A stretch of 64,000 nt of DNA from an uncultured bacterium (GTDB lineage Bacteria > Omnitrophota > Gorgyraeia > Zapsychrales > Aceulaceae): NCBI GenBank assembly GCA_937930175.1, contig CALGLP010000015.1:132174-196173 (forward strand), read 5' to 3'. Positions 11,312 to 59,597 of the stretch are shown one piece after another; the stretch's first letter is position 1; each line of letters opens with the position of its first letter. Both the position numbers and the translations under genes were made by a program. Under the pieces are notes generated by a model that had not been told where the DNA came from, made no database searches, and worked only from the letters and a program-made list of their open reading frames with translations.

Positions 11312-11403
11312 GCTTAAGCTCCTTTTTATAGATTTTTTAAGATGTGGATATTCTACCATATTTACCACAAGAGACAAGGTTTGCAGGATTGAAGGTGAAA
11401 TTG

Positions 11404-13077
11404 ATGTCGGCTTTCTTTCATGCTATACTGCTGCTCATGATCCATATCTTGAAAAATTTCATTGCCTTTTTTCTTCGCTACCAAAAGATTTTCTTCTTCA
11501 TCCTCACACTTACATTAACAATCGCCATCTTTTTCCCTATTCACAATCTGATGCTTCCGCTTGCGCAAGGCGACCATGGACGAGATCTCTACGCCTTTAC
11601 CCAAACCATGCAAGGCGCGGAGCCTTATCAAGACTATCTCTGGACCTACGGTCCTTTCATGCCCTATTATTACGCTGGTATCTTTAAAATCCTCGGCCCA
11701 ACCATTCAAAACGCGATTTGTGGTGAAATAGCGATCAAGATCTTAGGCGTTATGGCTTTCTATTTCGCACTAGGATGTTTTGTGCCGCTTCTTTGGGCCT
11801 CCTTGGGTGCCTTGTGGCTGGCCTCCTTTTACCCGCATTTTTGTCACACCTTTAATCATGCTGGCGGCATCAGCGCTCTTTTACTCACCATCCTCGCTCT
11901 TTTCTTGTACCTTAAAACACAAAAACGCAAATTCGTTTGGCTCGGGTTTCTTGCCGTCGCGCTTGTTTCTCTTATTAAGATCAATTTTGGTGTTTTCGGT
12001 TTTCTGGCTTTCGCACTATCGATCGCCCTGATCGATGGCACAAACAAAATATTCTTTAAAAATATAAAATTCTACTTCTACAGTTCTTTCGTAACAGGAT
12101 TAGGCATCGTCTTCGTCCACCTCTTTTTTATTCGCAAACTTCCCTTCTACTACATTCTCCAATGTTTTTCCCTTCTAAAAAATTACCAACAAGCTGGTTA
12201 TGCCCCAAGCATCCCTTTAGAGCAAAATATTCTTAACTTTCTTCAGAAAACATTGACCCAAAACATCACTTTCTGGCCATATCTGATCGTGATGATCATT
12301 GTTTTGAGCCTCTTGGGACTTCTCGGTATTCTCTGCAGCAGAGACAAGAAACAATGGCCAACGCATAAAACAACCCTTCTTGTTCTTGCCACGACAAGCA
12401 TCTTTGTTGTGCTCATGCTCCACGAGGCCTTTTTAAGCGAACGCATCTACGCCAAATATTGGGGAGCGCCTTTTCAAATGCTTTTTATTTTCCTCATTAT
12501 TGGCATCATGATCACAAGAACTCCTCGCCTCTTACAAATCGCTTTAGCCCTATTTTTAAGCGCTGTTATTTTTACTAACACCCAACGGCTTCATCGCATC
12601 ATTGGCTTTTTCAAAACCCCCGCGCACCGCTTTCAAATAGACTCAAATGATATTTACATCACCAACGCCATGGACTGGCTTGCAACCGTGCACCAAACCA
12701 CATCCTTTCTCAAAGCTAATCTTAAAAAGGATGAACTCTTTTTAGCCTTACCCTGCGACACGCTCTATTATTTCTTAACAAACAAACCAAGTCCAACACG
12801 CGAGCTTTACTTTTTTACCTTTGTCAATATCCCACCTGTGCAAGAAAAGGAGATCATTACAAAGCTCGAAAATAAAAAAGTAAACTACATCCTCCTTTCC
12901 AATCGTTGTCAGACCGACGAGGCTGGCATGGGAACATTTGGCAAGGACTATTGCCCTTTGCTCGCACAATATATCTTAAAGAATTTTAGTGCAATTGAAG
13001 CCTTTGGAGATTGGAATCGACCTGCGGGTTGGATCGACAATCATGCGGTGAGGATTTTAAAACGGAAAAATCCTTAA
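11404..13077 (+). CDS. Polytopic integral membrane protein, possibly GT-C-type glycosyltransferase
   Basis: Start at MSAFFHAILLL with GAAGGTG RBS; >10 predicted TM helices; periplasmic-loop acidic motif GDHGRDLY; family assignment uncertain. Confidence 0.55.
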   Translation: MSAFFHAILLLMIHILKNFIAFFLRYQKIFFFILTLTLTIAIFFPIHNLMLPLAQGDHGRDLYAFTQTMQGAEPYQDYLWTYGPFMPYYYAGIFKILGPTIQNAICGEIAIKILGVMAFYFALGCFVPLLWASLGALWLASFYPHFCHTFNHAGGISALLLTILALFLYLKTQKRKFVWLGFLAVALVSLIKINFGVFGFLAFALSIALIDGTNKIFFKNIKFYFYSSFVTGLGIVFVHLFFIRKLPFYYILQCFSLLKNYQQAGYAPSIPLEQNILNFLQKTLTQNITFWPYLIVMIIVLSLLGLLGILCSRDKKQWPTHKTTLLVLATTSIFVVLMLHEAFLSERIYAKYWGAPFQMLFIFLIIGIMITRTPRLLQIALALFLSAVIFTNTQRLHRIIGFFKTPAHRFQIDSNDIYITNAMDWLATVHQTTSFLKANLKKDELFLALPCDTLYYFLTNKPSPTRELYFFTFVNIPPVQEKEIITKLENKKVNYILLSNRCQTDEAGMGTFGKDYCPLLAQYILKNFSAIEAFGDWNRPAGWIDNHAVRILKRKNP

Positions 13078-19915: not shown

Positions 19916-19932
19916 ATACCACTCCTTCGGTG

Positions 19933-27914: not shown

Positions 27915-30900
27915 CTAACTTCCAACTTCTAACTTCTCTTTTTCTTCAAAACCCAAAAGCGCATTAAAGCTTGTGATCGGCGCTGCCTCAAGGCCTCCTA
28001 CCTTTGAATATTGCTCAGCCCTAGGCACTCCGCTATCTGTTAAGAATTGACCAAAATTCATAGGAACGATGCCAGTAATCACCGGCACAAAGCCCGGGAT
28101 GTTTTCTAAGTCCACCCCCTGCCATTCAGGCGGAAGGTTAAATTGAATCGGCGAGGAGCCCGTACGCTTAAGCTCAAGGTTGGCGGAGTTGAGGTCGATG
28201 CCGCCTTTGAGAAAATCGCTATTAGTACCAGCCTTACCGGTATCAACCCCATCCGGAGCTGCAACATCAAGAACAATCTCATCCGGTAAGTCAGGAAGAA
28301 ATTCTTTAGGGGCGACAGAAGCTGGCTCCATTTCTCCTGCATCGGCTTGATTTGGCTGATCCATTGATGAATCTGCAAGCTCTAAGGGATTCAGATGATG
28401 GCCATGCACACCAACATCTTGATACCATTGCTTATATTGCGCAAGCGTGAATTCATGCTCAAGCAAGGCTTTTTGTTGAGATAACAGCGCAAAAACAATG
28501 CCCCTTTCTTTGTACGCTTCATTAAACTGATCAACCAATTCTTGAGTCAAATAGGCATCATTGAGAAGAACATATTTGATTCCATTGGAGAAATCATCAG
28601 CACCTTTTTCAGCCAAAATGACCGCAACGCCATCCTTATACGCCGTTCCGCTTGCAGTGCCAACACCTGCCCCTGCTCCAGCCCGATCCTCATCTCGAAT
28701 CTCAAACGGAGCTGTATAAAATGTCTTTTCTGAAGATATCCCGTTATTTAATAAATTAAGCAAGCCATCCATCATGTCGGTTGCGCTCCCCTTAGCAATT
28801 CCATGCGCTTGATATTGTCTGCCAATCTCAGGGTCAACTTTTTCAAAAGTAAATTTCTCATCCGGCATTAAACCATGACTAACTAAAAAGGCAGTATCTG
28901 CAGAGCCTTTTTTCCCATGAAATCCCTTCACGTCTTCCACAGACGTTATGCCGAGAAAAGCTTCCTCCTCCAAAGAAGATGCCTCATCGGAGATATAACC
29001 CAAAGCTGAGAAATGTTCTTCTTTTATTCCTTTCCGAATCAAATCAAGAATAATCGCGTTTAGCCTTACCCGAAGATCTGCCTGCGCAACCTGATCATTC
29101 ATCTCAAATGCCCCTTCGCTCAATAAAGCATCAAGCAAAGTAGACATAGCATTATCATAATAACTGAACAATCGTTGACGAGCTTCAAAGCTGCTCTTAA
29201 CAAAGGCTTGAAAATCCTCACTTACCTGAGAAGCTAGAAAAAGATCAAAGTCATCATACTCATCCTCTGCAGCATCCATCATGTTGATAAATTCATCAAC
29301 GCGCTGCAATCGAACAGCATCATCCTCTCTACCGGTGATTATTTTATTAATGATCTTGAGCTTAATTGGATAAAGATGCTCTTGAGGTGATGTTTCTGTT
29401 TCCGATAGCATCTTTTTGATAATACTCCATCTGTCGCCCAATAAACTTTCAAGCAAAGATTCATCACCTTTTTTCAAAAACTCCATTACGGCGGCATTAG
29501 CTTTTTTATCATCATAAGAAGAAAATATTGTCGATATCTTATTTAAAAATGCTCGCTCTTCTTGATAAATCTCAGATGAGAACAGGCCTTCCAAGCCCTC
29601 TCTCTTGTAAATATACTTCATACCCGTGTTAAAATATTTCTGAAAAAGATCTTCATTTCTTTGAACAATCTCACGCTGAATCTCAAGGCTTCGTTTCTCC
29701 ACCCAGGCCTCTTCCAGGATTCTTCTCATTTCAAAAAACTTTGCTGCAGCAGCTTCTCTAAAGCCATCAAAAAGACTATGCAAATTTTCATGAATAATTA
29801 TTTCTATAATACGAAGAATATTTTTAGAATCAGTAACAACAACATCAACCAACCCCGTACTATTACCGTCAGTAAGCAACAAGTGATAACCTTCAATCCT
29901 GCTATGAAACCCCGAGTCTAAAAGATGATTGACCCATGACGATCTTGGAACGAAAAGAATGCTAGAGGGATTAACGTTGAGATCGGGGTACCTGGAGGCT
30001 TCATTCTTGAAGATTTCAAGAGCTCCTTTCTGCCGATCAGATAGCTGATCGTAAGGCAAGGCTCCCCCTTCAACCTCCTTAAGTGCTTCAATAAATCCAG
30101 ACAAAGTCCCGTCCTTCCAATGCTGCCTAAGCTTTGCTAAATGGCCTTCTTCATCAATGCGTGAATAGCTATCCATTCGCTGGTCAATATTAATGATCCC
30201 GGAGGAGGCTTGAGTTTCAACTTCATCTACAATAGAATTTGGATCATTAAATCCAGCTTGAATCGCTTGAGAATCAAAAAATTCTTCTCGTGAAGCCGCA
30301 TCACTAGTTTGATCTTCGAAATCAAGCGCTAATCCCAAGAGACGCACCCAGCCATTTTCCGTCATTGAGTTCATTAAATTATCAGATTCACCGATAGCTG
30401 CTCCGATATCAATAATTTTCAATTTTCTCCGGGCTGCTTCTAAATCTTGGAAGCGTCCCTGTTCATCAAAACCCATATCGCGTATTTTCAATAAGACGCT
30501 CTCTACTGAATACTTTTCCTGCACTTCCCTTAATGACTTAGCCGGCCTCGGTGTTCCTCTATCGTCTTCAGCATCCATCTGCATGACAATCTGCTCTGTC
30601 CCAACTCCTCTCAAGCCGCCTTCATATCTTTTATAAACCCCATCATTTTTAAATAACATTTTTAATGTTCTGATCGTTGACAAGATAAATTGCTCTCCCG
30701 CCTTTTGGTCCCCCGGGGATAGGCCAGAAAGCAGATATTCCATATTTTCAACAAATTTCTTTGCATACCGAGGCCCGTCATTGTGCTTTTCGATATTATA
30801 AAAGACAACATCGACAGATAAGACAGGATTATTCTGATCCGCACCCTCAAAGACTCCAACCGTAATGCGTGAATACCCTTGCTCTGGCCTAAAGTCGGTC

Positions 30901-33900
30901 GTAAAGGGGCGCACAGAATATTGCCTTGATTTCTCGCTAAATAATTCTTTAAATATTTCACTCTCCTCCAATGCTTTCGCATACTTTATTTGAAATTCTG
31001 ATAGCTGACCATTCACAGGTAAATCCCCATCAACATAAACCATAAGATCTAAATCCTCGCTTAGGCCATCAAACTTCTCTTGATATGTTCCGCGAATAGA
31101 TGAGCCGGAGTCCATAACGCTACGTGCAGTAATGCCTGAACCTTCTAAAAGATTCTCTGTCATCTCCTCCAAGGCTTTTGACAAGCGCTGAACATCCTGC
31201 CATCTTGTCAAATAAGGAACAGCTTTGTACTTTTGCACTTGATATTCTGCGAGATCATCAATGACGCGATTAATGCCAAGAACCTTCACGGCACCCCGGC
31301 CAACGCTATCGCACTTAAATCCATCACTCGATCCCAAATCACGAAAACCTTTGGGCATTCTACTGATAAGAACACTTTCGGTCTTTTCCATCATCTCTCT
31401 CATCTCTTTCAGCCCCTCAGCGGCTGTTTTTCCATTATAATAGTAAATTTTATTAGGGGGCTTCCATTGGGGGTATTGGGTCTGGATTTCATGCATCAAA
31501 TCTTGGATGACCTTTTTCGAGGACATAGGCGCCAGAAAAACACCGGAACCAAGAGGAATCGCATGGCTCGAGTCATCCTTGCGCGCGGTAAATCCACCCA
31601 CAGGCCAATCGTTCTTCTCTAAAAGTGGGTTTAATAAAAAAGATTTGTTTTCTAAAAGAATCTCTATGGGGGTTACATAAGCAAAAGATGCCGATTTATA
31701 CGTAACGGCTTGATTAACAGAGAAATGCACAAATTCCGTTCCTATCAAAGAACGAACCTTGCCTTCTTTTAGTAAGCTATCAAAAGCATTTTCATCGTTC
31801 AGGGTCTTCAAAATATTCGCAGGCAAAAGATATCCAGACATCAATACAGCTTTGACAAGATCAAGATTGTCATTGATCTGATGCATGGCTAAATTGCCAG
31901 ACAAGCCTTCTTGAGATAAAAATGTTTCAACATTATCAATCTTAGAGACTGACTTAAATGAAAACTTCTGTGCCTGATTCGGATCAGTCTTGTAGGCGGA
32001 CTCAAAGCTTGGGATAACCCGGCTGGAAAATTTATTTAATGTCATAAAATCTTGTCGATATCCTGGAATGCGGAATTTGTGTTTTGTCAAAACCTGCCTC
32101 AACATAGACTCTGTAAAGAATTCCTCGCTTAGGTTTTGAACAATACTATTATAAATTTCTTGGTTAAACCCTAAATTTTTATTGATGAGCTCATCTGCCA
32201 ATTGCTCGGCAAGATGTATGTTAGCCCCTTGAGAATCACTAATTTTTTTTCGGTCAGTTAGCTCTCTAATGAACGATAAAAATATCTGAGAATAAAAACT
32301 TTTCCGGTGGTTAAGATTATTTTCAATTCCCTCTTCCAGAAGAGCATTAACGAATGGCGCCTGGAGCTCAAACGTAGATATCTTGCTTAGAGAATCGATA
32401 ATTTCAAAAATTAGCTTCTTGGCAGATAACTCAGGAAAGTGGCTATAGATTGCCAAAAGGGTTGATACAACATCATCGGCAACTATATTTTCTGCTGAAT
32501 TATTCAATTGGTAAATAAGGTCACTAAAATATTTTGAAAACATATCGATCTGATTTTTGGTCAATATAATTTTATTTGAATAGTTTAATTTATTAAAAAA
32601 TAGCTTTAACAAAGCATTGCGGGCTTTATCTGGAATTCCAGGGTCTTGAATATACTGAATAAACTCTTCTTTTTGCTGCAATGTTGCATCAGGCAAATAC
32701 TGGCTATTGTTCATAAGCTCTGCCATAGATGCCCGTGTCACGGGAGAAGTTCCGGGATCCAAAATGAAATCAAAGATTTGACTATCGTATTCAAGCCCAA
32801 TATAACCCTTCTTCACAAAAGAATCCGCTAAGGATCCTCGAAATGAGTCTGGGGACTTTTTATCCAGCATTATCTCGCAAACTTTCTTTGTTATTCTGTC
32901 GTGCCTAGAATCTTTTGCTAATTGACATAAAACGTTTTCTAAACTTTTCCGTAGATCAGCAGATATTTCTTTGTCTAATTCTTCTATAATTTGATCGAAA
33001 ATCTCATAATCTTGCTCTATCGATTCACTCAATACCGTCTCAAAAGCACTTCGCGCATCGATTTTCACATCGTTTCTTGCTAAAATATTCATGACAAAAT
33101 GAATATTTTCGTACGTTGGCATGGGGTCATAATAATACCCCCGATTTGAAACAAAAAGGGTGATTGCTTTGGCTAAAATCAGTTGAGCCTCAAAATCCAT
33201 TGGATCAACTTGCTCAAGCTCAGCGAAAGCCTGCTCAATCAGAAATTTATTTTTGGGATATCTGACGAGAGAATTGAAGTGGTCCCGTGCATCGCGAGAT
33301 AGCGCAGGAACGCCTTTTGCAAATGCTTTAAAGTCCTCCAAGGTCAGCGGTTTTTCTTTTCCATATGCACCTACCTGGAAATAATAAGCGTTAACAATCG
33401 CATTATGCAAAGGAGGTGAATCGATCTTGAGCATTTCGGAATATGCTTGTGGAAAAAGACTTGAGTCACCTTGAAAGACTACGGTGAAAATGGACGTTAA
33501 ACTTTCTTCTCCTTGATCAGGTTGTTGCGCATATAGCTGAACAATCTCAGGCAATAAGGCTGGGTCCCGCAAAGCGCTCATGCCTACGGCAGCAGCCCAA
33601 AACCCTCCCAGCTCATAAACGGAAGGCTTGGTCTGTCCTAACGCTAATATTTTTTCACGCGTTAATTTGAAATCTTGATTGGCAACGACAATTTCTGTTA
33701 ATTTTCCTAGAATGTCTCTTGTTTCGTATTTGCCTTGGGTTCGAAGGCCAACTCCCGATGGACTCATTTTACTTGACCCATCTTGGAAGTTAATGCGAAC
33801 CCTATCTTTATTTGACTGAACAATAAGATCATCTCCCTCTACAATAATTTTTACATCCTTGGCTTGCGCGAGGCGGTCAAGGAGCTTTTTCTCAAGCTTT

Positions 33901-36032
33901 CTCACAGTTGGCCCATGAAGAGACCAGGCTAAGAAGCCAAGAATGCTTGCAGCAAAAACTCCAAGTACAGAAAACATTATTCGATCTGAAGCGCGTATTG
34001 CTTCAACAGTTTCTTGAACAACGCTTTGCTGTTGCTGTAAATATTCTTGATTCTCAACAAGGGCTTCATCCACGCACATGACATAACCAGCAGAGCCATA
34101 CTCAACATATGAAGAGGTTAGTCCTTTGATGGGTATGATATAAACCGTAATGCTATCCCCATTAATAAGGTAGGTCCGGGGAGGATACATTTTCACTGCT
34201 TCCAGATCGCCAATCCACTTTCCTGTGCGCTTAGATTCAGCCTGAAGATCAGAGGGAAGATTATTCGATATATAATCATAGCCTTGGTCTAATGTTACTT
34301 CGGCTGGAATGCTATCCTTAACCGGCGGGCCATCGACATCAGCTTGCGTTTCACCCACGGTTGAATCTCCGGATTTTATCGGTGGGCCATCGAGGGATGG
34401 ACTTGCCTTGACAGCCGCACCCTCTTTGAAAGATGCAACGGTGTTTGCTAAAGGCTGAGATTGATCCTGCGCCAACACGATTTGGTCTTCATTATCTTGG
34501 CTTGGTGTTTGGGCTGATGCGGGATTTAACGCCACGCTAATAAAAAGAGCTGTGCCGATGATGATCCCGGTAAAGATTGTTTTTGCTGCACTTGCTATAG
34601 ATTTTACAGTCATGCATGATGATATCGCAGGAACACCTGTAGCATTGCCAAACCCCCCCGAGAAATACTTTCGCGGGATGTGTTTCTTGGCGTAGGTGTC
34701 GTACTCGATCTTCAAGATATTGCACACACCTTTTTTGTAGGCGGCGAGATACTGTTGATAAATAACTTCAACATTAGAAGTTAGAGGAGAGACGTTAGAA
34801 GTTAGAAGAGGCGAAGAAGAAGCAGGAGTTGTGAGTTGTAAGTTATCAGTCTTAAGTGTTTCCGGGTTTTCCTTAGAACTTATGACTTTTGACTTATCAC
34901 TTTTTTCTCCCTTCTCCCTTCTATCTTCTCCCTTCAATCCTGCTATTTTCTTCTTATCCCCATACACTTTATTTAAGATCGATTCCTTGAGCGCTGTCTT
35001 GTACCACGTGGCCAGGACCATGGCGTGGAACATCTGCCTAAGCTCACTAAAGTTCTTGCCTTCGTTGACTTCACGTTCTAATAAAGGAATAAGCACTTCT
35101 CGCACAATACTTGAAGAGATATCAGAAGTTAGAGGAGAGATATTAGAAGTTAGAAGAGTCGAAGAAGAAACAGTGTTTGGTATATTGTCGTTAGTATTTA
35201 GTGGCTGAGTTTTTAAATGAGCGCCTGACTTATGGAGGCCATCGGCCGACATCAAGTCAGCCTGCGCGAATTTATCCCGTTTTGACTGCGGCCCAGCAGG
35301 CAAAATCGGGACTTCCCTTCCATCTTCTATCTTCTTCTCTCTACTCTCTACTTTCTCCTCTCTACTTTTCTGCTCTGCCAAATAGTCACTTTCCAGCATC
35401 ACCTTTAAATGACTCTCCGTCACCAATGCCTTGTCCGTGTCTTCATACACAACCGCCTTTTCAGGCACGATCCAGACTTTGTTAAAGGTATCAACCGGGA
35501 TATTGGTGGTGCCGTATTCTTCATAAGCCTTCTTGTAGACTTTAGCCCAGAATTCCTTGCCTGTTTCACTATCAGGAAGCATGAGAGAAGCCGTGACTTG
35601 CTTGAGGATATAATCCTGGGCCAAGAGTTCCTGGCCCATTTCTGTTTGTCCTAAGGCTTCTGGGATAATACGGTCTGATTCATACGGTGAAAGGTTGACC
35701 CACAGGTCCTCTTCAGGGGTGGTAAGTGTTGCTAGAAAGTAACGGGCAAGCATTTCACTTTCAGCTTTTAATTCATCACCTTGAAGGCCGGTGTTTCCAC
35801 TATCCACAATAAAATCAAACTGAAAAGGATTGTCCGGATAAACCTTAAGGCCTCTTAGCATCACCGGCACAAAGCCAGGGCTTAAAGGAACAACAGTACC
35901 GGGAACGGGGAGATTGAAAGCGCCTTGGGCTAGGGCTTCACGCGGGATAAGAGTCGTTGCCAAAAAGCAGGCAATAACCCCTGCGCAAACATTCTTGAAA
36001 AAGAAAGACTTTTTAAAACAACAGCAAAACAT
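27915..36032 (-). CDS. Giant secreted protein (2705 aa), function unknown; paralog of 36243..40724
   Basis: Signal peptide with ALA-Q cleavage site; N-terminal ~450 aa homologous to neighbour; 2-3 internal TM-like segments; S/T/L-rich repeats LLTSN(I/V)SPLTS(D/N); an HENLH (HExxH) motif; C-terminal GFVPVI motif. Confidence 0.7.
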   Translation of the reverse strand: MFCCCFKKSFFFKNVCAGVIACFLATTLIPREALAQGAFNLPVPGTVVPLSPGFVPVMLRGLKVYPDNPFQFDFIVDSGNTGLQGDELKAESEMLARYFLATLTTPEEDLWVNLSPYESDRIIPEALGQTEMGQELLAQDYILKQVTASLMLPDSETGKEFWAKVYKKAYEEYGTTNIPVDTFNKVWIVPEKAVVYEDTDKALVTESHLKVMLESDYLAEQKSREEKVESREKKIEDGREVPILPAGPQSKRDKFAQADLMSADGLHKSGAHLKTQPLNTNDNIPNTVSSSTLLTSNISPLTSDISSSIVREVLIPLLEREVNEGKNFSELRQMFHAMVLATWYKTALKESILNKVYGDKKKIAGLKGEDRREKGEKSDKSKVISSKENPETLKTDNLQLTTPASSSPLLTSNVSPLTSNVEVIYQQYLAAYKKGVCNILKIEYDTYAKKHIPRKYFSGGFGNATGVPAISSCMTVKSIASAAKTIFTGIIIGTALFISVALNPASAQTPSQDNEDQIVLAQDQSQPLANTVASFKEGAAVKASPSLDGPPIKSGDSTVGETQADVDGPPVKDSIPAEVTLDQGYDYISNNLPSDLQAESKRTGKWIGDLEAVKMYPPRTYLINGDSITVYIIPIKGLTSSYVEYGSAGYVMCVDEALVENQEYLQQQQSVVQETVEAIRASDRIMFSVLGVFAASILGFLAWSLHGPTVRKLEKKLLDRLAQAKDVKIIVEGDDLIVQSNKDRVRINFQDGSSKMSPSGVGLRTQGKYETRDILGKLTEIVVANQDFKLTREKILALGQTKPSVYELGGFWAAAVGMSALRDPALLPEIVQLYAQQPDQGEESLTSIFTVVFQGDSSLFPQAYSEMLKIDSPPLHNAIVNAYYFQVGAYGKEKPLTLEDFKAFAKGVPALSRDARDHFNSLVRYPKNKFLIEQAFAELEQVDPMDFEAQLILAKAITLFVSNRGYYYDPMPTYENIHFVMNILARNDVKIDARSAFETVLSESIEQDYEIFDQIIEELDKEISADLRKSLENVLCQLAKDSRHDRITKKVCEIMLDKKSPDSFRGSLADSFVKKGYIGLEYDSQIFDFILDPGTSPVTRASMAELMNNSQYLPDATLQQKEEFIQYIQDPGIPDKARNALLKLFFNKLNYSNKIILTKNQIDMFSKYFSDLIYQLNNSAENIVADDVVSTLLAIYSHFPELSAKKLIFEIIDSLSKISTFELQAPFVNALLEEGIENNLNHRKSFYSQIFLSFIRELTDRKKISDSQGANIHLAEQLADELINKNLGFNQEIYNSIVQNLSEEFFTESMLRQVLTKHKFRIPGYRQDFMTLNKFSSRVIPSFESAYKTDPNQAQKFSFKSVSKIDNVETFLSQEGLSGNLAMHQINDNLDLVKAVLMSGYLLPANILKTLNDENAFDSLLKEGKVRSLIGTEFVHFSVNQAVTYKSASFAYVTPIEILLENKSFLLNPLLEKNDWPVGGFTARKDDSSHAIPLGSGVFLAPMSSKKVIQDLMHEIQTQYPQWKPPNKIYYYNGKTAAEGLKEMREMMEKTESVLISRMPKGFRDLGSSDGFKCDSVGRGAVKVLGINRVIDDLAEYQVQKYKAVPYLTRWQDVQRLSKALEEMTENLLEGSGITARSVMDSGSSIRGTYQEKFDGLSEDLDLMVYVDGDLPVNGQLSEFQIKYAKALEESEIFKELFSEKSRQYSVRPFTTDFRPEQGYSRITVGVFEGADQNNPVLSVDVVFYNIEKHNDGPRYAKKFVENMEYLLSGLSPGDQKAGEQFILSTIRTLKMLFKNDGVYKRYEGGLRGVGTEQIVMQMDAEDDRGTPRPAKSLREVQEKYSVESVLLKIRDMGFDEQGRFQDLEAARRKLKIIDIGAAIGESDNLMNSMTENGWVRLLGLALDFEDQTSDAASREEFFDSQAIQAGFNDPNSIVDEVETQASSGIINIDQRMDSYSRIDEEGHLAKLRQHWKDGTLSGFIEALKEVEGGALPYDQLSDRQKGALEIFKNEASRYPDLNVNPSSILFVPRSSWVNHLLDSGFHSRIEGYHLLLTDGNSTGLVDVVVTDSKNILRIIEIIIHENLHSLFDGFREAAAAKFFEMRRILEEAWVEKRSLEIQREIVQRNEDLFQKYFNTGMKYIYKREGLEGLFSSEIYQEERAFLNKISTIFSSYDDKKANAAVMEFLKKGDESLLESLLGDRWSIIKKMLSETETSPQEHLYPIKLKIINKIITGREDDAVRLQRVDEFINMMDAAEDEYDDFDLFLASQVSEDFQAFVKSSFEARQRLFSYYDNAMSTLLDALLSEGAFEMNDQVAQADLRVRLNAIILDLIRKGIKEEHFSALGYISDEASSLEEEAFLGITSVEDVKGFHGKKGSADTAFLVSHGLMPDEKFTFEKVDPEIGRQYQAHGIAKGSATDMMDGLLNLLNNGISSEKTFYTAPFEIRDEDRAGAGAGVGTASGTAYKDGVAVILAEKGADDFSNGIKYVLLNDAYLTQELVDQFNEAYKERGIVFALLSQQKALLEHEFTLAQYKQWYQDVGVHGHHLNPLELADSSMDQPNQADAGEMEPASVAPKEFLPDLPDEIVLDVAAPDGVDTGKAGTNSDFLKGGIDLNSANLELKRTGSSPIQFNLPPEWQGVDLENIPGFVPVITGIVPMNFGQFLTDSGVPRAEQYSKVGGLEAAPITSFNALLGFEEKEKLEVGS

Positions 36033-36192
36033 ACCGTGGCCCTCAAATTATGTTTGCCTAATATGCTCTATCTATATAAAGGATATCATATAAATATAGG
36101 TATTTAGGGGGTTGGGGGGCACTGGAGGGAAAGCGCTTTCTTGAAATTTTCATCGTCGAGAATAAGCACGAAAACCACAGAAGGGCATTAAT

Positions 36193-36238
36193 TTCCTAAA
36201 TTAATTAAGACAACAAATTCGCCCTTGGGAAGGTTTGG
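36193..36238 (-). pseudogene. Duplicated 3' fragment of rsmI (…KGEFVVLINLGN*)
   Basis: Translates to the C-terminus of RsmI (intact gene ends …KGEFVVLINLQN* at 40879); flanking intergenic blocks are also homologous (ggaaagcg.tttc.tgaaa). Confidence 0.6.
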
Positions 36239-36242
36239 GAAC

Positions 36243-39200
36243 TTAAAGTCGGCTAAGTTCTAAAGAACTTTTTTCCGCATCATCAGGACCCAGGCCCAGA
36301 AACACATTAAAGCTTGTGATGGGGGTGATATTGATGATGACCGGCGTAAAGCCGATGATATTTTCTAATTCTAAATTTATCTTTTCGGAATTTGCTGACA
36401 CATCAAACTTGATTCCTTCACCTTTGCTCTTAATAATGCTATCAGTGCTTTTTAGGTCAATGCCACCTGGAGCTGGAGATGAGCTTGCCTGCGATGCCTT
36501 AAATAAGTCATCGGCACTCACTAAAACATTAGGGCTAGCTAAATCTTGACTCTTAGGAATGATCGATATTGTATCAGCTGCTTTATCATTATTCTCTGAT
36601 TTACAGGTGTTATTTAATTCACAATCCGCTACTTTTCTAACCTCCTTACGCTGAGAATGACTAGTTATTTTTAAGATTGCTAACTGGGCTTGCCTGTCCC
36701 GTGTAGCATTTTGCTCTTGGCCACGAGACAATACAAAATCGGATTTCTCGTCTTTCGTCGGCATGATGGCTGTTGCTGTATCAAGAAGTATCTGCGCAGC
36801 AGTGTTTTCGTCGCCATATCTCAGCCCTGCGACTATTTCTTGATCAATTAAATTTTCCGAAAGATTTAATGTGGCCTCAGGATTCTGCCTCTCAACATTA
36901 GCAACTGGCATTGAATCCACATCTTTATCTGGAAAACGAAACTGCGGGGTAGGCATTCTTGCCTCCTGTCGCTGGGCTCCCTGCTGTTGTGCTGTCTGAC
37001 TCGTTTGTGATGCTTGCGCATTGCCTGGCAGATCGCTGATACGATAATCAAATGTTGCTTTCACGCCACGGTGCATTTGATCAGCTCCAATCGCTGCCTC
37101 AATAGCATTTACTTGCCCTGAAGTTAGCGTGACAGTCGACTCCTTAATGGTTTTCCAATTACGCCAAAAATAATCAACTTCTTCATCGCTGAGCGCTAGT
37201 CCTGCTGCATTGAGGTGACCCTTTAAGATGCTCAGAAAGTCTCTATCAACTTTATCCTGTAACGCGCTCCATACCCTTAGTAAAGCTTTGTCGGAGGTGT
37301 CGTATTCTTCGGGATGCATATCCAGCATGCGGTTTCCCTGACCGTTATAACTAGGAAGTTTATACCATTTCTTAGGGCTGCTAATATATTTTGCATTTGG
37401 TAGTTTTTGATCCCAAGTCGAACCAGGAGGTGACGATTCCCCAGGACTTTTCGTATTTTCAATCGTATCACTTCTCGGGCTTGTGTTTTGGTCGTTATCA
37501 GAATTCATACCGACGCCGAAACGCAATGTCAAAAAAAGTGCGGCCATCGGGATCAACAAAAGTAACCAGCGAAGCTTTTTGGACATCCGTGGCGGCCGGC
37601 GAACGCTAGCCACCAATCTTTCGACGCGACTTGCATCCTCCGATATGACCGCCTTCATAATTTCTCTAACTCTTCGTTGTGAAATATGCTCAGGCAGCGA
37701 CTGCTCTAGGGTCGAGGGAGTCATGACTTCACCGAACTCCTCTTGCTCCTTCACAGCCGCTTTTACATTATTACGAATATTCTTAGGAATAAAATTAATG
37801 GCATCCTTAAAAAAGATTTCCCTGGCCCACTCAGCTCTTGCCTCTGTCACCTCGCCGGGAGACATTGAATCAATCCCTGGACATTGCTGCTGAAACATCG
37901 CTTCTTCCTCATCGCTAAGTTTTTCATTTTGCGAGACCATTTCTTCCCGTGCATGCAAAAAACTACGGACAATCCGTCTGATAACATAACGCTGACTTAA
38001 GAAACGGCTTAAAACATCTGGGGTGTCCCGAAATTGCTGCTGAGCTTGGTAAACTAAACCTAACCCAAACCTATTATATTCACGGGCTTGGCTATCTTCT
38101 GAAGGTCCTTCCTGGTCATGGTTTTGAAGGTTCTCCCAAAGCTGTTCATCAGCTAGCGTCTCATTGCTGATTTGAACATTCAATTGTTCACGAATCGCCC
38201 GCATCAAAGGAGCCCACATTTCCAATGGAAAGAAACCCAAAAACTGCCGCTTACCTTCTTCTGTGTTAAAAAAGTTTGCATTATTCGAACGTATAAGGTC
38301 TTCTGCAAGTTTTCTTAAATTGTCCGGCGCCAAAAGATGTTTGACGATGTCCTCATCACATCCATCGTGCGAGGCATGAAGCTCATAGACAAGGCCAAGG
38401 CCAAAATCACTATAAGCCCTTTTCATGGTATCTTCCATTTCAAGTTGCTCGTCACGAGACGCGCCTGATTCTGCACGCGATAAAGAATAAAATATTTGTT
38501 CCGCAAGAATTTTTCCAAAAAGATCGTCCACGTAAACTATATTGAGAAATCTTTGTATGTTCTTTTCTTTTGGCTTGCTACCGCCTAGCACGGGAAGCCC
38601 TAGAACGCTTAAAGGCGCGTTATCGTGTTTTCGACTAACTAAATCTAACAATGTAAACGCCCAATAAAGATCCTTTTCAATCGTCTCAGGATTAAGATGA
38701 TTATTTGCATCAAGAAGCCCTGTAATAATTTTTATTTCAATGGTTGGAAAACTGCCAGATAAATTGATGATACGACTATGCTCCCTAACGCTACCTCCGC
38801 TAAACGGCGCTTGTTCATCTAGCACCTTGACATAAGACCCCCTCGGCTTCGTCCATGCATTACCGGATAAGGCACGCCACATAGCTTCATAAACTTTTCC
38901 CACTCTACCTAAGCGCCTTTGATCAACCTTAAGCTGTCCACCTTCCACCAAAGACTTACGACTTATATGCATATGCACACTATAAAGACCTCCAACCATG
39001 GGCCCCTCATTAAGCTTTTTAAGAATATTCTTAAACGCATCCCAGTCTTTTCGCGTGTTAAGGTTTATTTTTGTTTTTAGCTCATTAAAGTTTTCGCGCC
39101 CTTCAAGCTGCCAATCAGGAGGAACAATAGATTGAATACGTTCAATAACACGTTGTCGCTCGCTCGCTGTAAACGATTGGCCTGGATCAAGCCCAAGCAA

Positions 39201-40724
39201 TTGTTTAATATTAAACTCAAGCTCTAAAGAAAACGTGATGTCTGAAGGAAATTGTTTGAGGATGACATCCCCTGCCAAAGCGGAGAAATCCTTAGAAAGA
39301 AACGATGTTTCGAGGGCGTTCGGTGCTTCTGCCAATGATTGCCGTTGAGCACCAACACTTGTGTTAGCTGGCAATCCCGCAGCGGACTGATTGACGATAA
39401 GCGACGAAGCAGCTGGCTGAGAAAGGCTTTTCAATCGAACCTCAGCAACGCTAAGATCTCCCATAGCCTGATGACCATTCAAATCTTTTTCGTTTGCCGT
39501 TATGATGATGCTGGATCCAGCAATTCCGCCAAAACCTAGCCTCTCACCCCCTGCAAAATATTTTCGTGGAATATTTTTATTTGTATATGGGTCATATTCA
39601 ACCTTGATAAAGTTCATGACGCCTTTTTTAAAGGAATCGAGATATTGATTATAAATTTCTTGAGAGGTGGGATTTATGCTTGAAACATCGCCAATGTCCT
39701 TTTCTGCTAATGACATCTTGCTATGTACCAATTCAATTCCTTCCACCTTATTCCTATCTGCGTAGACTGTATTTAAAATGGAGTCTTTAAGCTTTGTTTT
39801 AAACCAATAGGCTAAAATGATTGCATTGTAGATTTGCCGCAATTGAGAAAAGTTTTTACCGCTGTTGACCTCTTTTTCAAGCTCAGGGATGATCATTTCC
39901 CGGACGATACTAGAAGAGATATCGGAAGGAAGAGGCTGGAGGCTAGAAGTTAGAGAAGAAACAGAAGATGGAGAATAGACGATGGAAGATGGAGCCGAAT
40001 CAGAAGAAACTTTATCGACGTTGCTTTTTCTATCTTCTATCTTCTCCCTTCTATCTTCCTTGCTTTTCTCCATTGCCACATAATCTTCTTCGATCATTAC
40101 TTTTAAGCTGGATTCCACCACAAAAGCTTTGTCGCTTTGTTCATACACAACCGCTCTTGCAGGCACAATCCAGACCTTGTTAAAGGTGTCGATAGGGATA
40201 TTGGTGGTGCCATATTGTTCATAAGCTTTTTTATAAACTTCTTTCCAAAAGACTTTCCCTTGATCTCCTTCGGGATAGATAAGAGAAGCTGTAATTTGTT
40301 TTAAAAGATAATCTTGAGCCAGCATGTCCTTGCCCATATCCGTTTGTGAAAGGGCGTCGGGGATAATCCGGTCTTTTTCGTAAGGGCTCAGGTTAACCCA
40401 CAAGTCATCTTGAGGAACGGTAAGCGAAGCCAAGAAATAACGGGCCAGCTTTTCACTTTCAGCTTTTAACTCATCACCGGCAAGGCCTGTGTTTCCGCTA
40501 TCGACAATAAAATCAAATTTAAAAGGATTGTCAGGATAAACCTTAAGACCTTTTAGCATCACCGGCACAAAGCCAGAGCTTAAGTTGACAATGGTTCCGG
40601 GAATGGGAAGATTAAAAGCAGATTGGGCTAGGGCTTTCGGGGGAATAATAGCAGTCGCCAGGAAGCAGAGAATAATTCCAAGGCAAATACCTCTAAAAAA
40701 GATATTCTTTTTAGCGCAAAACAT
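36243..40724 (-). CDS. Giant secreted protein (1493 aa), function unknown; paralog of 27915..36032
   Basis: Same signal peptide/N-terminal domain (about 70% identical over first ~230 aa), central TM segment (LLLLIPMAALFLTLRFGV), two FGLGLVY repeats, C-terminal GFTPVI motif. Confidence 0.7.
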   Translation of the reverse strand: MFCAKKNIFFRGICLGIILCFLATAIIPPKALAQSAFNLPIPGTIVNLSSGFVPVMLKGLKVYPDNPFKFDFIVDSGNTGLAGDELKAESEKLARYFLASLTVPQDDLWVNLSPYEKDRIIPDALSQTDMGKDMLAQDYLLKQITASLIYPEGDQGKVFWKEVYKKAYEQYGTTNIPIDTFNKVWIVPARAVVYEQSDKAFVVESSLKVMIEEDYVAMEKSKEDRREKIEDRKSNVDKVSSDSAPSSIVYSPSSVSSLTSSLQPLPSDISSSIVREMIIPELEKEVNSGKNFSQLRQIYNAIILAYWFKTKLKDSILNTVYADRNKVEGIELVHSKMSLAEKDIGDVSSINPTSQEIYNQYLDSFKKGVMNFIKVEYDPYTNKNIPRKYFAGGERLGFGGIAGSSIIITANEKDLNGHQAMGDLSVAEVRLKSLSQPAASSLIVNQSAAGLPANTSVGAQRQSLAEAPNALETSFLSKDFSALAGDVILKQFPSDITFSLELEFNIKQLLGLDPGQSFTASERQRVIERIQSIVPPDWQLEGRENFNELKTKINLNTRKDWDAFKNILKKLNEGPMVGGLYSVHMHISRKSLVEGGQLKVDQRRLGRVGKVYEAMWRALSGNAWTKPRGSYVKVLDEQAPFSGGSVREHSRIINLSGSFPTIEIKIITGLLDANNHLNPETIEKDLYWAFTLLDLVSRKHDNAPLSVLGLPVLGGSKPKEKNIQRFLNIVYVDDLFGKILAEQIFYSLSRAESGASRDEQLEMEDTMKRAYSDFGLGLVYELHASHDGCDEDIVKHLLAPDNLRKLAEDLIRSNNANFFNTEEGKRQFLGFFPLEMWAPLMRAIREQLNVQISNETLADEQLWENLQNHDQEGPSEDSQAREYNRFGLGLVYQAQQQFRDTPDVLSRFLSQRYVIRRIVRSFLHAREEMVSQNEKLSDEEEAMFQQQCPGIDSMSPGEVTEARAEWAREIFFKDAINFIPKNIRNNVKAAVKEQEEFGEVMTPSTLEQSLPEHISQRRVREIMKAVISEDASRVERLVASVRRPPRMSKKLRWLLLLIPMAALFLTLRFGVGMNSDNDQNTSPRSDTIENTKSPGESSPPGSTWDQKLPNAKYISSPKKWYKLPSYNGQGNRMLDMHPEEYDTSDKALLRVWSALQDKVDRDFLSILKGHLNAAGLALSDEEVDYFWRNWKTIKESTVTLTSGQVNAIEAAIGADQMHRGVKATFDYRISDLPGNAQASQTSQTAQQQGAQRQEARMPTPQFRFPDKDVDSMPVANVERQNPEATLNLSENLIDQEIVAGLRYGDENTAAQILLDTATAIMPTKDEKSDFVLSRGQEQNATRDRQAQLAILKITSHSQRKEVRKVADCELNNTCKSENNDKAADTISIIPKSQDLASPNVLVSADDLFKASQASSSPAPGGIDLKSTDSIIKSKGEGIKFDVSANSEKINLELENIIGFTPVIINITPITSFNVFLGLGPDDAEKSSLELSRL

Positions 40725-54064: not shown

Positions 54065-55189
54065 TTATCTAAAATCTCCGAATATTTCCATCATTCTCTT
54101 CGATGGGTTCGATACTCTATTTGCATAGTGCTTAAGAAGCGTATCCATGGAGCTATGCCCTAGATCATACATAAGCCGATAGGGAGGCTGACCACACGCT
54201 AGGCGCCAACTAGCAAAGGTTTTTCTGAATTGGTGAAGATCCTTATCTTGATTCTCTGTTAGCTTAATGCCGGAAGCCTTAAAGATATCATCCAGAAAAT
54301 CTCTGTTTAAATGAGCATCCAAAGGCTTGCCGGTTGGCTTTAAAAAAACATGTCCTTCGTTTTGGCGAATCTTCTTCAACAATTCAAAACTAATCTTTGG
54401 AATGTAGATCGTTCTGGCCTTGCTATACTTTGGATCAAAAGTACTATCCTGAAAAATGTTATACTGCTGATTCTTCCAATCAATGTGTTGCCATCGAAAA
54501 TGAACATACTCCATGAGGCGCATCCCCATCTGTAAGGCTACCATCAGAAGCGTATAGTATGGAAAAACATTGTATTGTGATTGCGCTCCCTTCGCGCCTT
54601 CTATAAGGTCCAATATTTGTTTTTCAATAAAAGGCTCAACAATCTTACCTTCTGCTGATAGTCCATATCCAATGACAGGATTTTTAGTTAATGTCCTTTC
54701 TTTTACGAGAGCCACAAAGAAAGCAGAAAGACTTTTGAGGTAGTCAATCCGGCTGATGGGCTTAAGGTCCTTTTTCAAATACTCGCCAAGATTATGCCCT
54801 ATATCAATAATGTGATCTTCGGTTATGTCCTCAACATACGGGGGCAGAAACTTTGCTAGAAGAGATATATCTTTTATATATGATCGGATGGTTTCGGGCT
54901 TTAAAGGTTTGGCTTGTGTTTCCCATCGCTTCCTTGCCTTGATAATAGCTTGAGCCATAGGTGTCTTGCTTGAAACCTTTTCGCCATTCATCTTCAAGCT
55001 TCGATCAAGCAATACAACGGCATCATCGCGATTGGTGGCCTCGCCCTTAGAGTTATATACTACCCTGAAAAGCTTGCCGGATTCATCCCTTAAGCTTTCC
55101 TTTTTGCGCTCTGGCCTTCCATCAGGACCGCGTTCTTCCCAAAGCTTGTACCAAATGCCGTTATTAGGCGTTAGCCAAGGTTTTTTCAC
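54065..55189 (-). CDS. Tyrosine-type site-specific integrase
   Basis: 374 aa; catalytic R…HxxR…Y pattern (FRKTFASWRL, GHSSMDTLLKHY). Confidence 0.85.
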   Translation of the reverse strand: MKKPWLTPNNGIWYKLWEERGPDGRPERKKESLRDESGKLFRVVYNSKGEATNRDDAVVLLDRSLKMNGEKVSSKTPMAQAIIKARKRWETQAKPLKPETIRSYIKDISLLAKFLPPYVEDITEDHIIDIGHNLGEYLKKDLKPISRIDYLKSLSAFFVALVKERTLTKNPVIGYGLSAEGKIVEPFIEKQILDLIEGAKGAQSQYNVFPYYTLLMVALQMGMRLMEYVHFRWQHIDWKNQQYNIFQDSTFDPKYSKARTIYIPKISFELLKKIRQNEGHVFLKPTGKPLDAHLNRDFLDDIFKASGIKLTENQDKDLHQFRKTFASWRLACGQPPYRLMYDLGHSSMDTLLKHYANRVSNPSKRMMEIFGDFR

Positions 55190-55608: not shown

Positions 55609-56289
55609 TTATTTCTCGTTTAACATGGCATCTACCTTTTTCCATCTTTCCCTGTACCCTGAACGGATCCGTGGGCGTTTATCCCCGGCGCCTTCTGGCC
55701 GGCCAAGCTTCTTTCCTTCTACCTTTGAACGGGCCATGCCGGCTTTCACGCGGGAAGAAATTTTTGCTCTTTCGACTTTAGCTAGCCATGCAAAGATAGT
55801 CATTAAAAGCTCTGTCGTTGGATTATCCTCAGCCGTATTGAGCCAGGATTCAGTATAGGATAGAAGCGCAACGCCGTTACGCGTTAGCCTCTTAATATAT
55901 CCGCAAACGTTGCTCCATCCTTCCCTTGAGAAGCGATCCATGCTCCAAAAGATAAGCCATTGAAATAACATCTTGTCTGAATCATTGAGCATCATAGAAA
56001 AGGCCTTGCGATCACTCTTGGAGCCGGAAGCCTTATCTCCATAGATGCGGATTGATCTCTCTTCGCCCGTTTTCTTATTCTTATAGATTTTCTCAAGAAA
56101 CCCATCATCGTCTAAGCACCTTAGCTCCCTTGATACAGAATTATATTCCGCGAAGATATTTATCTCTTCCCACTCACTAGTTAATTCTAGCTTGGCCTGG
56201 GCAAACGTAAGCAAAGGGTTTAGCTGATTGTCCAATGATTGCCCCTTATTTTCCGTTGAGACGCGGACGTATAAAGCTATTGTTTTCAT
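55609..56289 (-). CDS. Serine recombinase (resolvase/invertase family)
   Basis: 226 aa; N-terminal ALYVRVST catalytic Ser motif and DRFSR; C-terminal basic HTH. Confidence 0.75.
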   Translation of the reverse strand: MKTIALYVRVSTENKGQSLDNQLNPLLTFAQAKLELTSEWEEINIFAEYNSVSRELRCLDDDGFLEKIYKNKKTGEERSIRIYGDKASGSKSDRKAFSMMLNDSDKMLFQWLIFWSMDRFSREGWSNVCGYIKRLTRNGVALLSYTESWLNTAEDNPTTELLMTIFAWLAKVERAKISSRVKAGMARSKVEGKKLGRPEGAGDKRPRIRSGYRERWKKVDAMLNEK

Positions 56290-58837: not shown

Positions 58838-58866
58838 TGACGGCTTCCTTGTTGTGTGGTTTAATG
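58838..58866 (+). promoter_or_regulatory. Putative promoter for cI-like gene (TTGACG-17-TTTAAT)
   Basis: In divergent intergenic region that also carries direct repeats tgaactgatttga (58735 and 58810). Confidence 0.35.
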
Positions 58867-58889
58867 CTTCTATGATAAATTGGAAAACA

Positions 58890-59597
58890 ATGAAATTTGG
58901 GGATTTCCTTCATCATCTTCGGCAAGAGCAAAAAGAAAAAATAACTGCAACGGCTGTGGCGAAGGCAGTTGGTAAAACCCCTACCGCAATCTTGAACATG
59001 GAAAAGAATAAGATACTCCCCTCTTATGATGTGTTCACAAAGATTGTCTTGTTCCTCGATATTGACTTTCCAGATATATGGATGCTCTACGACAAATTTA
59101 AAGAGCAGAAAATTCCAGATAAGAATGATGTAAAAGCCAGAATACAATTTTCAACATCATTTCTTCGTGATGCCGAAAAAGCCATTTCGGAAAGTAAATC
59201 CAGGTACAAGGCAAAAGTTCAAGAACATTTGCTTAAACAAATAAATTATGATTTAAAAGATGTTCAATTTAAAAATAAAATGAGCGAGTTGAAAAAATGG
59301 CAAACACTATCAGCCAAAGAAATAAAGATTGAGAAAAAAGACCTGAGTACTGCTCTCAAGAGAATATCAGCCATAATCACTCGATTCTCGCTCGGAACTT
59401 TAAATCCGTCAAAAACTGCCGAACAGGTCGCAGATTTCTCAATAAGAATTGCAAACCCTGACCGTATCAACGACGAAAAGTATGTTTCGGAAATTGTGGA
59501 TTTGCTGAAAAACTCCCGAAAGATTGGTAATACATTTTGGAAAGAGCTAGACCCTAGCCAAGAGCGAATCTTTAAGAAGCTCAAAGAAAAGAAATAG
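58890..59597 (+). CDS. Phage repressor-like HTH protein (cI-like)
   Basis: Start placed at MKFGDF downstream of predicted promoter (ORF-track start 58854 would include the -10); XRE HTH ITATAVAKAVGKTPTAILNMEKNK plus C-terminal helical domain. Confidence 0.55.
   Translation: MKFGDFLHHLRQEQKEKITATAVAKAVGKTPTAILNMEKNKILPSYDVFTKIVLFLDIDFPDIWMLYDKFKEQKIPDKNDVKARIQFSTSFLRDAEKAISESKSRYKAKVQEHLLKQINYDLKDVQFKNKMSELKKWQTLSAKEIKIEKKDLSTALKRISAIITRFSLGTLNPSKTAEQVADFSIRIANPDRINDEKYVSEIVDLLKNSRKIGNTFWKELDPSQERIFKKLKEKK

Follow-up and report, generated by a model that had tools for sequence, protein, structure and literature searches.

Constant ends and exchangeable middles: two neighbouring genes from a large Omnitrophota family of predicted exported proteins

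Contig CALGLP010000015.1 of assembly GCA_937930175.1, from an uncultured bacterium of the phylum Omnitrophota, contains a 64,000-nt stretch (the window, to whose positions all nucleotide coordinates below refer) with two long genes, here called A and B, that lie next to each other on the minus strand and together occupy 12.8 kb. Both encode a predicted Sec-type signal peptide, a conserved N-terminal domain (N-domain), a middle of their own and a short conserved C-terminal domain (C-domain). An earlier description from the letters alone, the sequence-only reading, had called them tandem paralogues that share a signal peptide and an N-terminal domain, about 70% identical over the first 230 residues, and then diverge completely. 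The shared beginning holds: BLASTP aligns residues 1-466 of A with 1-403 of B at 54% identity (E 4e-147), and the first 230 residues are 72% identical. The complete divergence does not, since a C-domain common to A 2610-2664 and B 1420-1478 (pairwise BLASTP E 2e-5) had been overlooked. The open reading frames (ORFs) are intact. Three independent assemblies (ERZ724084, ERZ724082 and GCA_036722365.1) each have a contig with this gene pair and residue-identical products, which makes an assembly artefact or a frameshift, the latter named earlier as a possible refutation, unlikely.

The predicted signal peptides are nearly identical, with ...CFLATTLIPREALA/QGAFNLP in A and ...CFLATAIIPPKALA/QSAFNLP in B, the slash marking the expected cleavage site. 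This layout of positively charged n-region, hydrophobic core and AxA-Q site can be seen, by sequence and hydropathy, in nearly all of the 120 best-matching relatives, which mostly start with a signal peptide ending …AxAQ followed by LNLPxPGxMVxLSPxFxPxxLKGxKVxPDNPFxFDF. The N-domain that begins here comprises about 360 residues. Its family-wide end corresponds to residue ~395 of B, a point to which all 120 relatives align. An alignment of 36 N-domains (50-65% identity to B) contains about 57 invariant columns, including the stretches WVNLSP.E..R, D.LAQDY.LKQ, TFNK.W and R.Y..GG. A domain that directly follows the signal peptide and contains WVNLSP[YH]E..R, TFNKVW and RKYFSGG identifies a family member, and A and B both have it. 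The domain has no known fold; a structure model of it is alpha/beta, and searches of Pfam, NCBIfam and the PDB sequences with single sequences and member by member returned no match. The sequence-only reading had also counted three copies of the repeat LLTSN[IV]SPLTS[DN] in A; the repeat exists, with the full form occurring only twice (at residues 293 and 409) and the short form LTS[ND][IV]S three times.

At the other end, the C-domain of about 65 residues is defined by the motif GGID[LF]…GFxPVIINIxP…LLG and has the consensus GGIDlNa.nLnLqt.G.Gi.F.lP……l.ni.GFvPVIINI.PvtNLp.lLGl. In 115 of the 120 relatives an iterative jackhmmer profile search locates this domain at the extreme C-terminus, and GGID[LF] stands 60-100 residues before the C-terminus in nearly all of them. 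Many C-termini (alignment A6) also share a short motif, [LIV]S, conserved 15-20 residues past LLG, for example …LELSRL, …LSKL or …ISKV. No match to the C-domain was obtained in Pfam, NCBIfam or the PDB sequences, and 25 C-domains gave no NCBIfam match at E up to 5. A divergent N-domain subfamily starts …GFAQVAAELDLSAHF…KFRPLHLRYL; in P0122 and P0133, the two of its members whose C-termini were inspected, the chain ends in a different shared region, …ERIKEYL…DILR[LI]EEE…LES (P numbers denote entries of our protein collection).

The two ends of gene A resemble each other in one detail. In both the N-terminus and the C-domain FNLP is followed 14-16 residues later by PGFVPV, and the underlying 21-nt stretch encoding PGFVPV(I/M) at 28078-28098 in the C-domain recurs at 35860-35880 in the N-terminus of A (20/21 identical) and at 40558-40578 in the N-terminus of B (19/21). 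Homology between the mature N-terminus and the C-domain as a family-wide feature was considered and rejected, hhalign giving a probability of 8.7% over 10 columns.

How widespread is this architecture? A and B do not stand alone: more than 2000 relatives of their family were detected. With protein A as query, over 2029 significant matches are obtained, of which those listed are 1487-4558 residues long; most matches cover only 8-20% of the query, namely its N-terminus, and Candidatus Omnitrophota is the source of every match listed with a name. The sequence-only reading had suggested a database search with the N-terminal domain to define a family. When one genome per species was scanned, the N-domain turned up at no fewer than 592 loci. 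The 80 listed among these (79 distinct), on which all neighbour and array analyses below are based, are without exception from Omnitrophota metagenome-assembled genomes, some of them mislabelled 'uncultured Planctomycetales'. A genome often has several copies, and same-strand head-to-tail arrays like B-A are frequent. Only 3 matches were found among 2.9 million viral contigs, and an origin of the family from phages or mobile elements was rejected on these grounds. Beyond the left edge of the window, about 1.2 kb away and after an Era-like GTPase gene, lies a third member on the same strand, P0069 (1511 residues; positions 10001-14536 of L083/L084, adjoining the window genes 82..1068 and 1081..1992), so that this genome has at least three family copies within ~46 kb.

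Length, which had been emphasised through the word 'giant', does not characterise the family. Complete family ORFs have a median of ~1530 residues and range upward from about 750, so size is not the defining trait, and the term is in any case reserved for ORFs >20 kb or proteins >10,000 residues (PMC10066038; bioRxiv 10.64898/2026.06.07.730766). The shortest member that has both ends comprises 753 residues, and no minimal protein made of N-domain and C-domain only came to light.

The N-domain of A is 75% identical to that of P0004 from another genome and 62% identical to that of B, and the C-domains of A and B are 32% identical, which makes the two old paralogues. A recent tandem duplication was rejected, as both are more closely related to proteins of other genomes than to one another and their DNA identity does not exceed 73% over 300 nt. 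Judged by either end, the nearest relatives of A are the same proteins, P0004-P0009, whose middles differ. Across 114 members the pairwise identities of N-domain and C-domain (means of 56% and 31%) are correlated, with a Spearman coefficient of 0.44 that was reached in 0 of 300 permutations. A and B are thus two old paralogues of a very large family, which is confined to Candidatus Omnitrophota in everything inspected.

Outside both ends, members are either unrelated or share modules at different positions, a pattern of shuffling. For A, residues 1308-1907 match P0003 1396-2022 at 40% identity, 1104-1673 match P0002 2263-2786, and 1962-2289 match both P0014 1267-1569 and P0017 1187-1489. For the middle of B no match exists in the 120 relatives, in the 79 loci, in Pfam or in the PDB sequences, and the FGLGLVY repeats noted earlier are present in it. 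An amidoligase_2 or glutamine-synthetase-like ligase was considered for B ~480-720 on account of the pattern ELE…HMH…EIK and dropped, as neither Pfam (PF12224) nor the PDB sequences gave a match at E values up to 10. In about half of the 120 relatives the middle contains Pfam domains, and these are overwhelmingly enzymes and regulators of cytoplasmic type: class I S-adenosylmethionine (SAM) methyltransferases; M48 peptidase together with an ABC1 kinase; GNAT; Ser/Thr kinase together with PP2C; HATPase; receiver domains; NUDIX, phosphoribosyltransferase (PRTase), phosphoglucomutase, NDK and phosphoenolpyruvate (PEP)-utilising enzymes; and UDPGP, PLD, HAD and XRE-type helix-turn-helix domains. 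Some members have NHL or HEAT repeats, and adhesin-type repeats are rare. For A and B themselves the statement that no domain family is recognisable stands: whole or cut into 8 pieces, they produce nothing above threshold in Pfam, NCBIfam, PADLOC or the PDB sequences.

More can be said about the middle of A. An exhaustive HMMER search of 1.84 billion representatives with A 1104-2300 finds only 45 proteins at E <=1e-3, and these resolve the region into two modules, M1 and M2. M1 (A ~1303-1908) is a unit of ~600 residues common to about ten large proteins; stand-alone proteins of 200-350 residues also exist that correspond to its second half, A ~1633-1856. The confident AlphaFold2 model of A 1290-1915 (predicted local distance difference test 86.4, predicted template-modelling score 0.86) retrieves in Foldseek the nucleotidyltransferases Cid1 (4e7x, E 7.7e-6), CdnC, DwCdnB, GLD-2, Tailor, yeast poly(A) polymerase (PAP) and CdnD. 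According to this model the second part, M1b, consists of a nucleotidyltransferase palm lobe and a helical second lobe of the type seen in PAP and oligoadenylate synthetase (OAS). The earlier suspicion that a GS…D.D patch recalls nucleotidyltransferases is vindicated, for GSSIRGTYQEKFDGLSEDLDL at A 1643 (the GS…DLDL patch) lies within this fold. At least 90% of the aligned homologues retain G1643-S1644, D1660, D1662 and D1741, which corresponds to the pattern hG[GS]…[DE]h[DE]h with one further acidic residue, the third. M1b is thus modelled as a nucleotidyltransferase of the type of Cid1, PAP and the cGAS/DncV-like nucleotidyltransferases (CD-NTases), with an intact catalytic triad and predicted activity; inactive DZF domains differ from it in this respect.

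Curated models such as PF01909, PF22600 and PF03828 barely register this relationship. A has no Pfam hit, its stand-alone homologues reach PF22600 only, at E 0.009-0.04, a profile search of the PDB sequences finds PAP at E 0.51 only, and the PADLOC cyclase model scores just 14.4 bits (E 0.0042) over 63 residues. Assignment as a CD-NTase of a cyclic-oligonucleotide-based antiphage signalling system (CBASS) was rejected, given the weak PADLOC score, the lack of a CBASS-type neighbour and the position of the domain inside a 2705-residue protein. Terminal uridylyltransferases such as Cid1, PAP, class I CCA-adding enzymes, CD-NTases and OAS are the closest known enzymes to M1b only, at 8-18% sequence identity; in contrast to them, M1b is embedded in a far larger chain, is fused to the ~300-residue M1a and stands in no CBASS-type operon. 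M1a, likewise well modelled by AlphaFold2, carries the conserved polar residues R1321, H1384, H1436, E1457 and N1462, which suggests an enzyme.

M2 contains the HENLH motif (at A 2081) that the sequence-only reading had picked out, and it is a conserved zincin-like module as judged from its alignment. H2081, E2082, H2085, E2108 and E2112 are invariant in all 13 aligned homologues (alignment A5), with a motif spacing of 19-27 residues, in keeping with a gluzincin signature of HExxH and a downstream Glu as putative third zinc ligand. The homologues score only below threshold in Pfam (Peptidase_M78 E 0.016, Peptidase_M1 E 0.12, MPTase-PolyVal E 0.19), and M2 has no match among the PDB sequences.

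The transmembrane (TM)-like segments reported earlier inside both proteins are real hydrophobic stretches (Table 1), and they complicate the topology. In about 30% of members, A's subfamily among them, the N-domain is directly followed by a segment that resembles a complete signal peptide, with a K/R-rich n-region, ~19 hydrophobic residues and an AxA/Q site. In A's subfamily this first segment is conserved (about 20 of the 120 matches) together with a preceding ISSSIVKKpLKxLK motif, and a second TM-like segment follows ~180-200 residues later in A, P0002, P0004, P0006 and P0008. The segment of B begins with a methionine (MSKKLRW…). Such segments may be relics of in-frame fusions between genes for exported proteins, true TM hairpins or processing sites. 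In 71 of the 120 members a simple hydropathy scan detects no strong hydrophobic segment past the signal peptide, which fits full export across the inner membrane.

Table 1. Positions of genes A and B and of their parts in the window (aa, amino acid residues)
Feature	Position	Strand	Remarks
Gene A	27915..36032	-	2705 aa; signal peptide, N-domain, 2 hydrophobic segments, variable middle, C-domain; entry P0001 of the protein collection
A aa 1-35, predicted Sec-type signal peptide	35928..36032	-	K-rich n-region, hydrophobic core, A-L-A/Q; Kyte-Doolittle peak 11-29
A aa 36-466, N-domain with two low-complexity S/T/L-rich inserts	34635..35927	-	
A aa ~472-510, internal signal-peptide-like segment	34503..34619	-	MTVKSIASAAKTIFTGIIIGTALFISVALNPASA/QTP; hydropathy and inspection; TM-like core 479-503
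A aa 685-703, second TM-like segment	33924..33980	-	K/R-rich flank after it; Kyte-Doolittle 2.17
A aa ~1303-1600, M1a	31233..32126	-	Conserved domain, always upstream of the nucleotidyltransferase within the ~600-aa M1
A aa ~1610-1915, M1b	30288..31205	-	Predicted bilobal Pol-beta-type nucleotidyltransferase (Cid1/PAP/CCA class I/CD-NTase/OAS-like)
A aa ~1949-2265, M2, zincin-like	29238..30188	-	H2081-E-x-x-H2085…E2108/E2112; homologues in ~20 proteins
A aa 2610-2705, C-domain and tail	27918..28205	-	GGIDLNSANLELKRTG..IQFNLP…PGFVPVITGIVP…; BLASTP against B and 50+ relatives, jackhmmer, tblastn
Gene B	36243..40724	-	1493 aa; signal peptide, N-domain, unique middle, C-domain; P0013 in the protein collection
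B aa 1-33, predicted Sec-type signal peptide	40626..40724	-	A-L-A/Q; sequence reading, hydropathy
B aa 34-395, N-domain	39540..40625	-	
B aa 396-1040, unique middle	37605..39539	-	FGLGLVY at 774 and 886; an internal repeat scores weakly (E 1e-4)
B aa ~1045-1075, internal Met and signal-peptide- or anchor-like segment	37500..37592	-	MSKKLRWLLLLIPMAALFLTLRFGVG; hydropathy 2.04; TM-like 1051-1072
B aa 1420-1493, C-domain	36246..36467	-	GGIDLKS…GFTPVIINITPITSFNVFLGLG…LELSRL

The surroundings of A and B consist of ordinary chromosomal housekeeping genes. In the direction of transcription B is followed by A and A by pyrR, which opens the series pyrR-pyrB-pyrC-(PEMT-like)-pyrK; upstream lie rsmI-like, glmS, dsbA-like, dacA-like and uppP genes, with a V/A-type ATPase operon further along. 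Promoter and terminator scans around the two genes stayed at chance level. When all ORFs of the 79 loci were clustered, no neighbour gene recurred in more than 5 of them.

Elsewhere in the window, genes for tRNA-Asp(GTC) and tRNA-Val(TAC) at 13250-13431 adjoin the ATPase operon (14030-20481; I, A, B and DUF2764-type subunits). Two ORFs, 7324..8916 (minus strand, 530 aa) and 11344..13077 (plus strand, 577 aa), have no Pfam match at E <=1e-5; the latter is one of few plus-strand genes in a window that otherwise reads almost entirely from the minus strand. The region 54065-64000 is probably an integrated phage or mobile element. It encodes a tyrosine integrase at 54065..55189, a serine resolvase at 55609..56289 and a small terminase subunit at 63065..63631, and on the plus strand it has an HTH_3 repressor-like gene (58854..59597); several of its ORFs lack a Pfam match, its G+C fraction is lower (0.39-0.43) and its AT skew is strong.

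Very long proteins of Omnitrophota have been described before, mostly as multi-enzyme chains that bear a signal peptide or TM segments (bioRxiv 10.64898/2026.06.07.730766). The 'multi-enzyme metabolic cluster' proteins of Nielsen & Lui 2026 (bioRxiv 10.64898/2026.06.07.730766) and the giant ORFs of Seymour et al. 2023 (PMC10066038) come from the same phylum and carry a signal peptide, TM segments or both, as is predicted for the present family. The Nielsen & Lui catalogue and the present family have in common the PF08241 methyltransferase, PF02518, PF00583, phosphoglucomutase, glycosyltransferase and NUDIX domains as well as many members that are dark to Pfam. Those proteins, however, have at least 10,000 residues or ORFs >20 kb and are mostly unique in sequence, whereas the present family spans 0.75-4.5 thousand residues and is defined by its two ends. 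The Archaeovorins and Dockerin-type giants of West-Roberts et al. 2023 (bioRxiv 10.1101/2023.11.21.568195), also from Omnitrophota and thought to act on host or prey, have N-terminal regions near the signal peptide in which no domain is identifiable. They differ in having at least 30,000 residues, dockerin, TSP3 and CBM repeats, C39 and S8 peptidases and flanking type II secretion system or pilus and PilZ genes, none of which is seen at A and B; with 2705 and 1493 residues, no such Pfam domains and housekeeping neighbours, these two were not assigned to that group.

Two established export systems show a similar logic. Exoproteins of two-partner secretion (TpsA, CdiA, FHA) combine a signal peptide with a conserved N-terminal secretion domain of ~250-300 residues and are very long, polymorphic and present in multiple paralogues. 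Their TPS domain (PF05860) is a beta-helix that Pfam detects, and a TpsB transporter is encoded next door, whereas the present N-domain is modelled as alpha/beta and is accompanied by a conserved C-domain. Membership was rejected, there being no Pfam hit, an alpha/beta model and no Omp85-type neighbour. Cargo of the type IX secretion system joins a Sec signal and a short C-terminal domain (70-100 residues) to unrelated and often large enzymes, as the family appears to do. That system belongs to Bacteroidota and the Fibrobacterota-Chlorobiota-Bacteroidota group, and its cargo, unlike the family, has no common N-terminal domain. This and other sorting tags (Por_Secre_tail, PEP-CTERM, GlyGly-CTERM) were set aside, as no C-terminal domain of NCBIfam or Pfam matched and a TM-plus-basic tail is lacking. 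Neither a conserved N-domain nor a GGIDL C-domain is described in the giant-protein studies (PMC10066038; bioRxiv 10.1101/2023.11.21.568195; bioRxiv 10.64898/2026.06.07.730766), and a full-text literature search for the family's motif strings gave nothing relevant. Long modular exported proteins of Omnitrophota and the principle of carrier plus payload are already known; both defining domains are new, and the architecture is undescribed.

What could such an architecture be for? Our preferred explanation, to which we give a probability of roughly 45%, is that the family consists of Sec-exported payload carriers that act at the cell surface or in host cells. The cleavable signal peptide (…AxA/Q) would carry the chain over the inner membrane. 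The two constant end domains would be its handling parts, either recognised by shared machinery encoded elsewhere or serving as envelope anchors, and the exchangeable middle would be a payload working outside the cytoplasm of the producer, on the cell surface or in a host or prey cell. In A, the M1 nucleotidyltransferase would extend the 3' ends of RNA by nucleotides or synthesise (cyclic) oligonucleotides, with the zincin-like M2 following in the chain.

The payload enzymes need adenosine triphosphate (ATP), SAM, acetyl-CoA, phosphoribosyl pyrophosphate or nucleoside triphosphates, so that exported copies would most economically be placed in the cytoplasm of another cell or at a tight cell-cell interface. 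Such a placement agrees with the host-dependent or predatory way of life known for the phylum (PMC10066038) and with the observation of predator RNA inside prey cells (PMC13153191). The N-domain and the GGIDL C-domain might be recognition signals for a phylum-specific route of export or delivery, as yet undescribed, that moves enzymes of cytoplasmic type onto or into the host, a proposal that we regard as doubtful. If it were true, the family would amount to a large and quickly reshuffled effector repertoire of nucleotidyltransferases, kinases, methyltransferases, NUDIX hydrolases and peptidases, comparable in role to the Dot/Icm or type III secretion effector sets, with new signals and new machinery.

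Several observations speak against payload carriers of this kind. Internal segments resembling signal peptides or TM helices are present in ~30% of members, including A and B, the charges flanking them misfit a simple topology in which everything lies outside, and where a member has only one such segment, its payload could lie in the cytoplasm. The many invariant polar residues of the N-domain mean that it could be an enzyme or ligand-binding domain and not a targeting module. The end domains are also separable: P0132 has the C-domain with TM anchors in place of the N-domain, and the divergent N-domain subfamily (P0121, P0122, P0133, P0134, P0148) lacks the GGIDL domain. Finally, linkage of the family to a gene for secretion or sorting is not seen: no cluster of genes is common to more than 5 of the 79 loci, and in the window pyrimidine biosynthesis genes, glmS and rsmI are the neighbours, which leaves the postulated shared machinery hypothetical.

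The main rival places the same proteins at home. They may be envelope-resident housekeeping scaffolds in the cell's own periplasm or inner membrane, with an N-domain that binds peptidoglycan, outer membrane or lipid and middles devoted to the cell's own extracytoplasmic or membrane-proximal biochemistry; we consider this unlikely. Poorer odds attach to polymorphic toxins of interbacterial competition, in which the ends would be trafficking domains, the nucleotidyltransferase and zincin-like modules toxins, and cognate immunity proteins would be expected. The combination of a conserved N-terminus with variable payloads, multiple copies and tandem arrays does resemble systems of the CdiA, Rhs and MafB type, nucleotidyltransferase toxins exist, and MenT/TglT appear low in the Foldseek list. 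Yet the variable part is internal and not C-terminal, the payloads are mostly metabolic and signalling enzymes instead of nucleases, deaminases or ADP-ribosyltransferases, neither gene is followed by a small immunity-like ORF (pyrR comes after A, and A after B), and no conserved neighbour gene was found in the 79 loci.

We see just as little probability in a structural coat or adhesin, a surface layer or means of host attachment whose N- and C-domains self-assemble, for example head-to-tail, while the enzyme modules are mostly degenerate. Adhesion and 'coat' roles have been proposed for giant ORFs of Omnitrophota (PMC10066038; bioRxiv 10.1101/2023.11.21.568195), and the FNLP…PGFVPV pattern at both ends of A as well as the NHL or HEAT repeats of some members would suit such a role. 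The conserved catalytic residues of the nucleotidyltransferase and the conserved zincin motif contradict degeneration, adhesin-type repeats are scarce, and the comparison of the N-terminal motif with the C-domain profile is not significant. The chance is similarly slight that the genes are in-frame fusions of neighbouring exported-protein genes without a common function, with the internal segments as relics and the ends reflecting shared ancestry only, a history that would in itself be compatible with payload carriers. It would account for internal segments that look like complete signal peptides, B's with a Met start and A's ending in AxA/Q, and loss of a stop codon in the frequent head-to-tail arrangements would fuse neighbours. 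Against it stand the strong purifying selection on the N-domain across hundreds of genomes, evident from 57 invariant columns, the correlated divergence of N- and C-domain, and the conservation of the first internal segment in A's subfamily together with ISSSIVKKpLKxLK, which points to function rather than decay.

Omnitrophota are widespread and ultra-small, and the literature on them has centred on their record-length genes. The family described here adds thousands of mid-sized, predicted exported proteins and thereby a concrete and tractable entry point to host interaction. If its ends are targeting or anchoring signals, the tags WVNLSPYE, TFNKVW and GGIDL…PVIINI would list a candidate 'interaction proteome' for any Omnitrophota genome, co-occurrence analysis could find the handling machinery, and payloads such as the Cid1/CD-NTase-like enzyme of A could be selected for biochemistry. 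Its members can also plausibly be seen as the building blocks of the Omnitrophota proteins of 10,000-147,000 residues, which may have arisen by modular shuffling and in-frame fusion of exported units.

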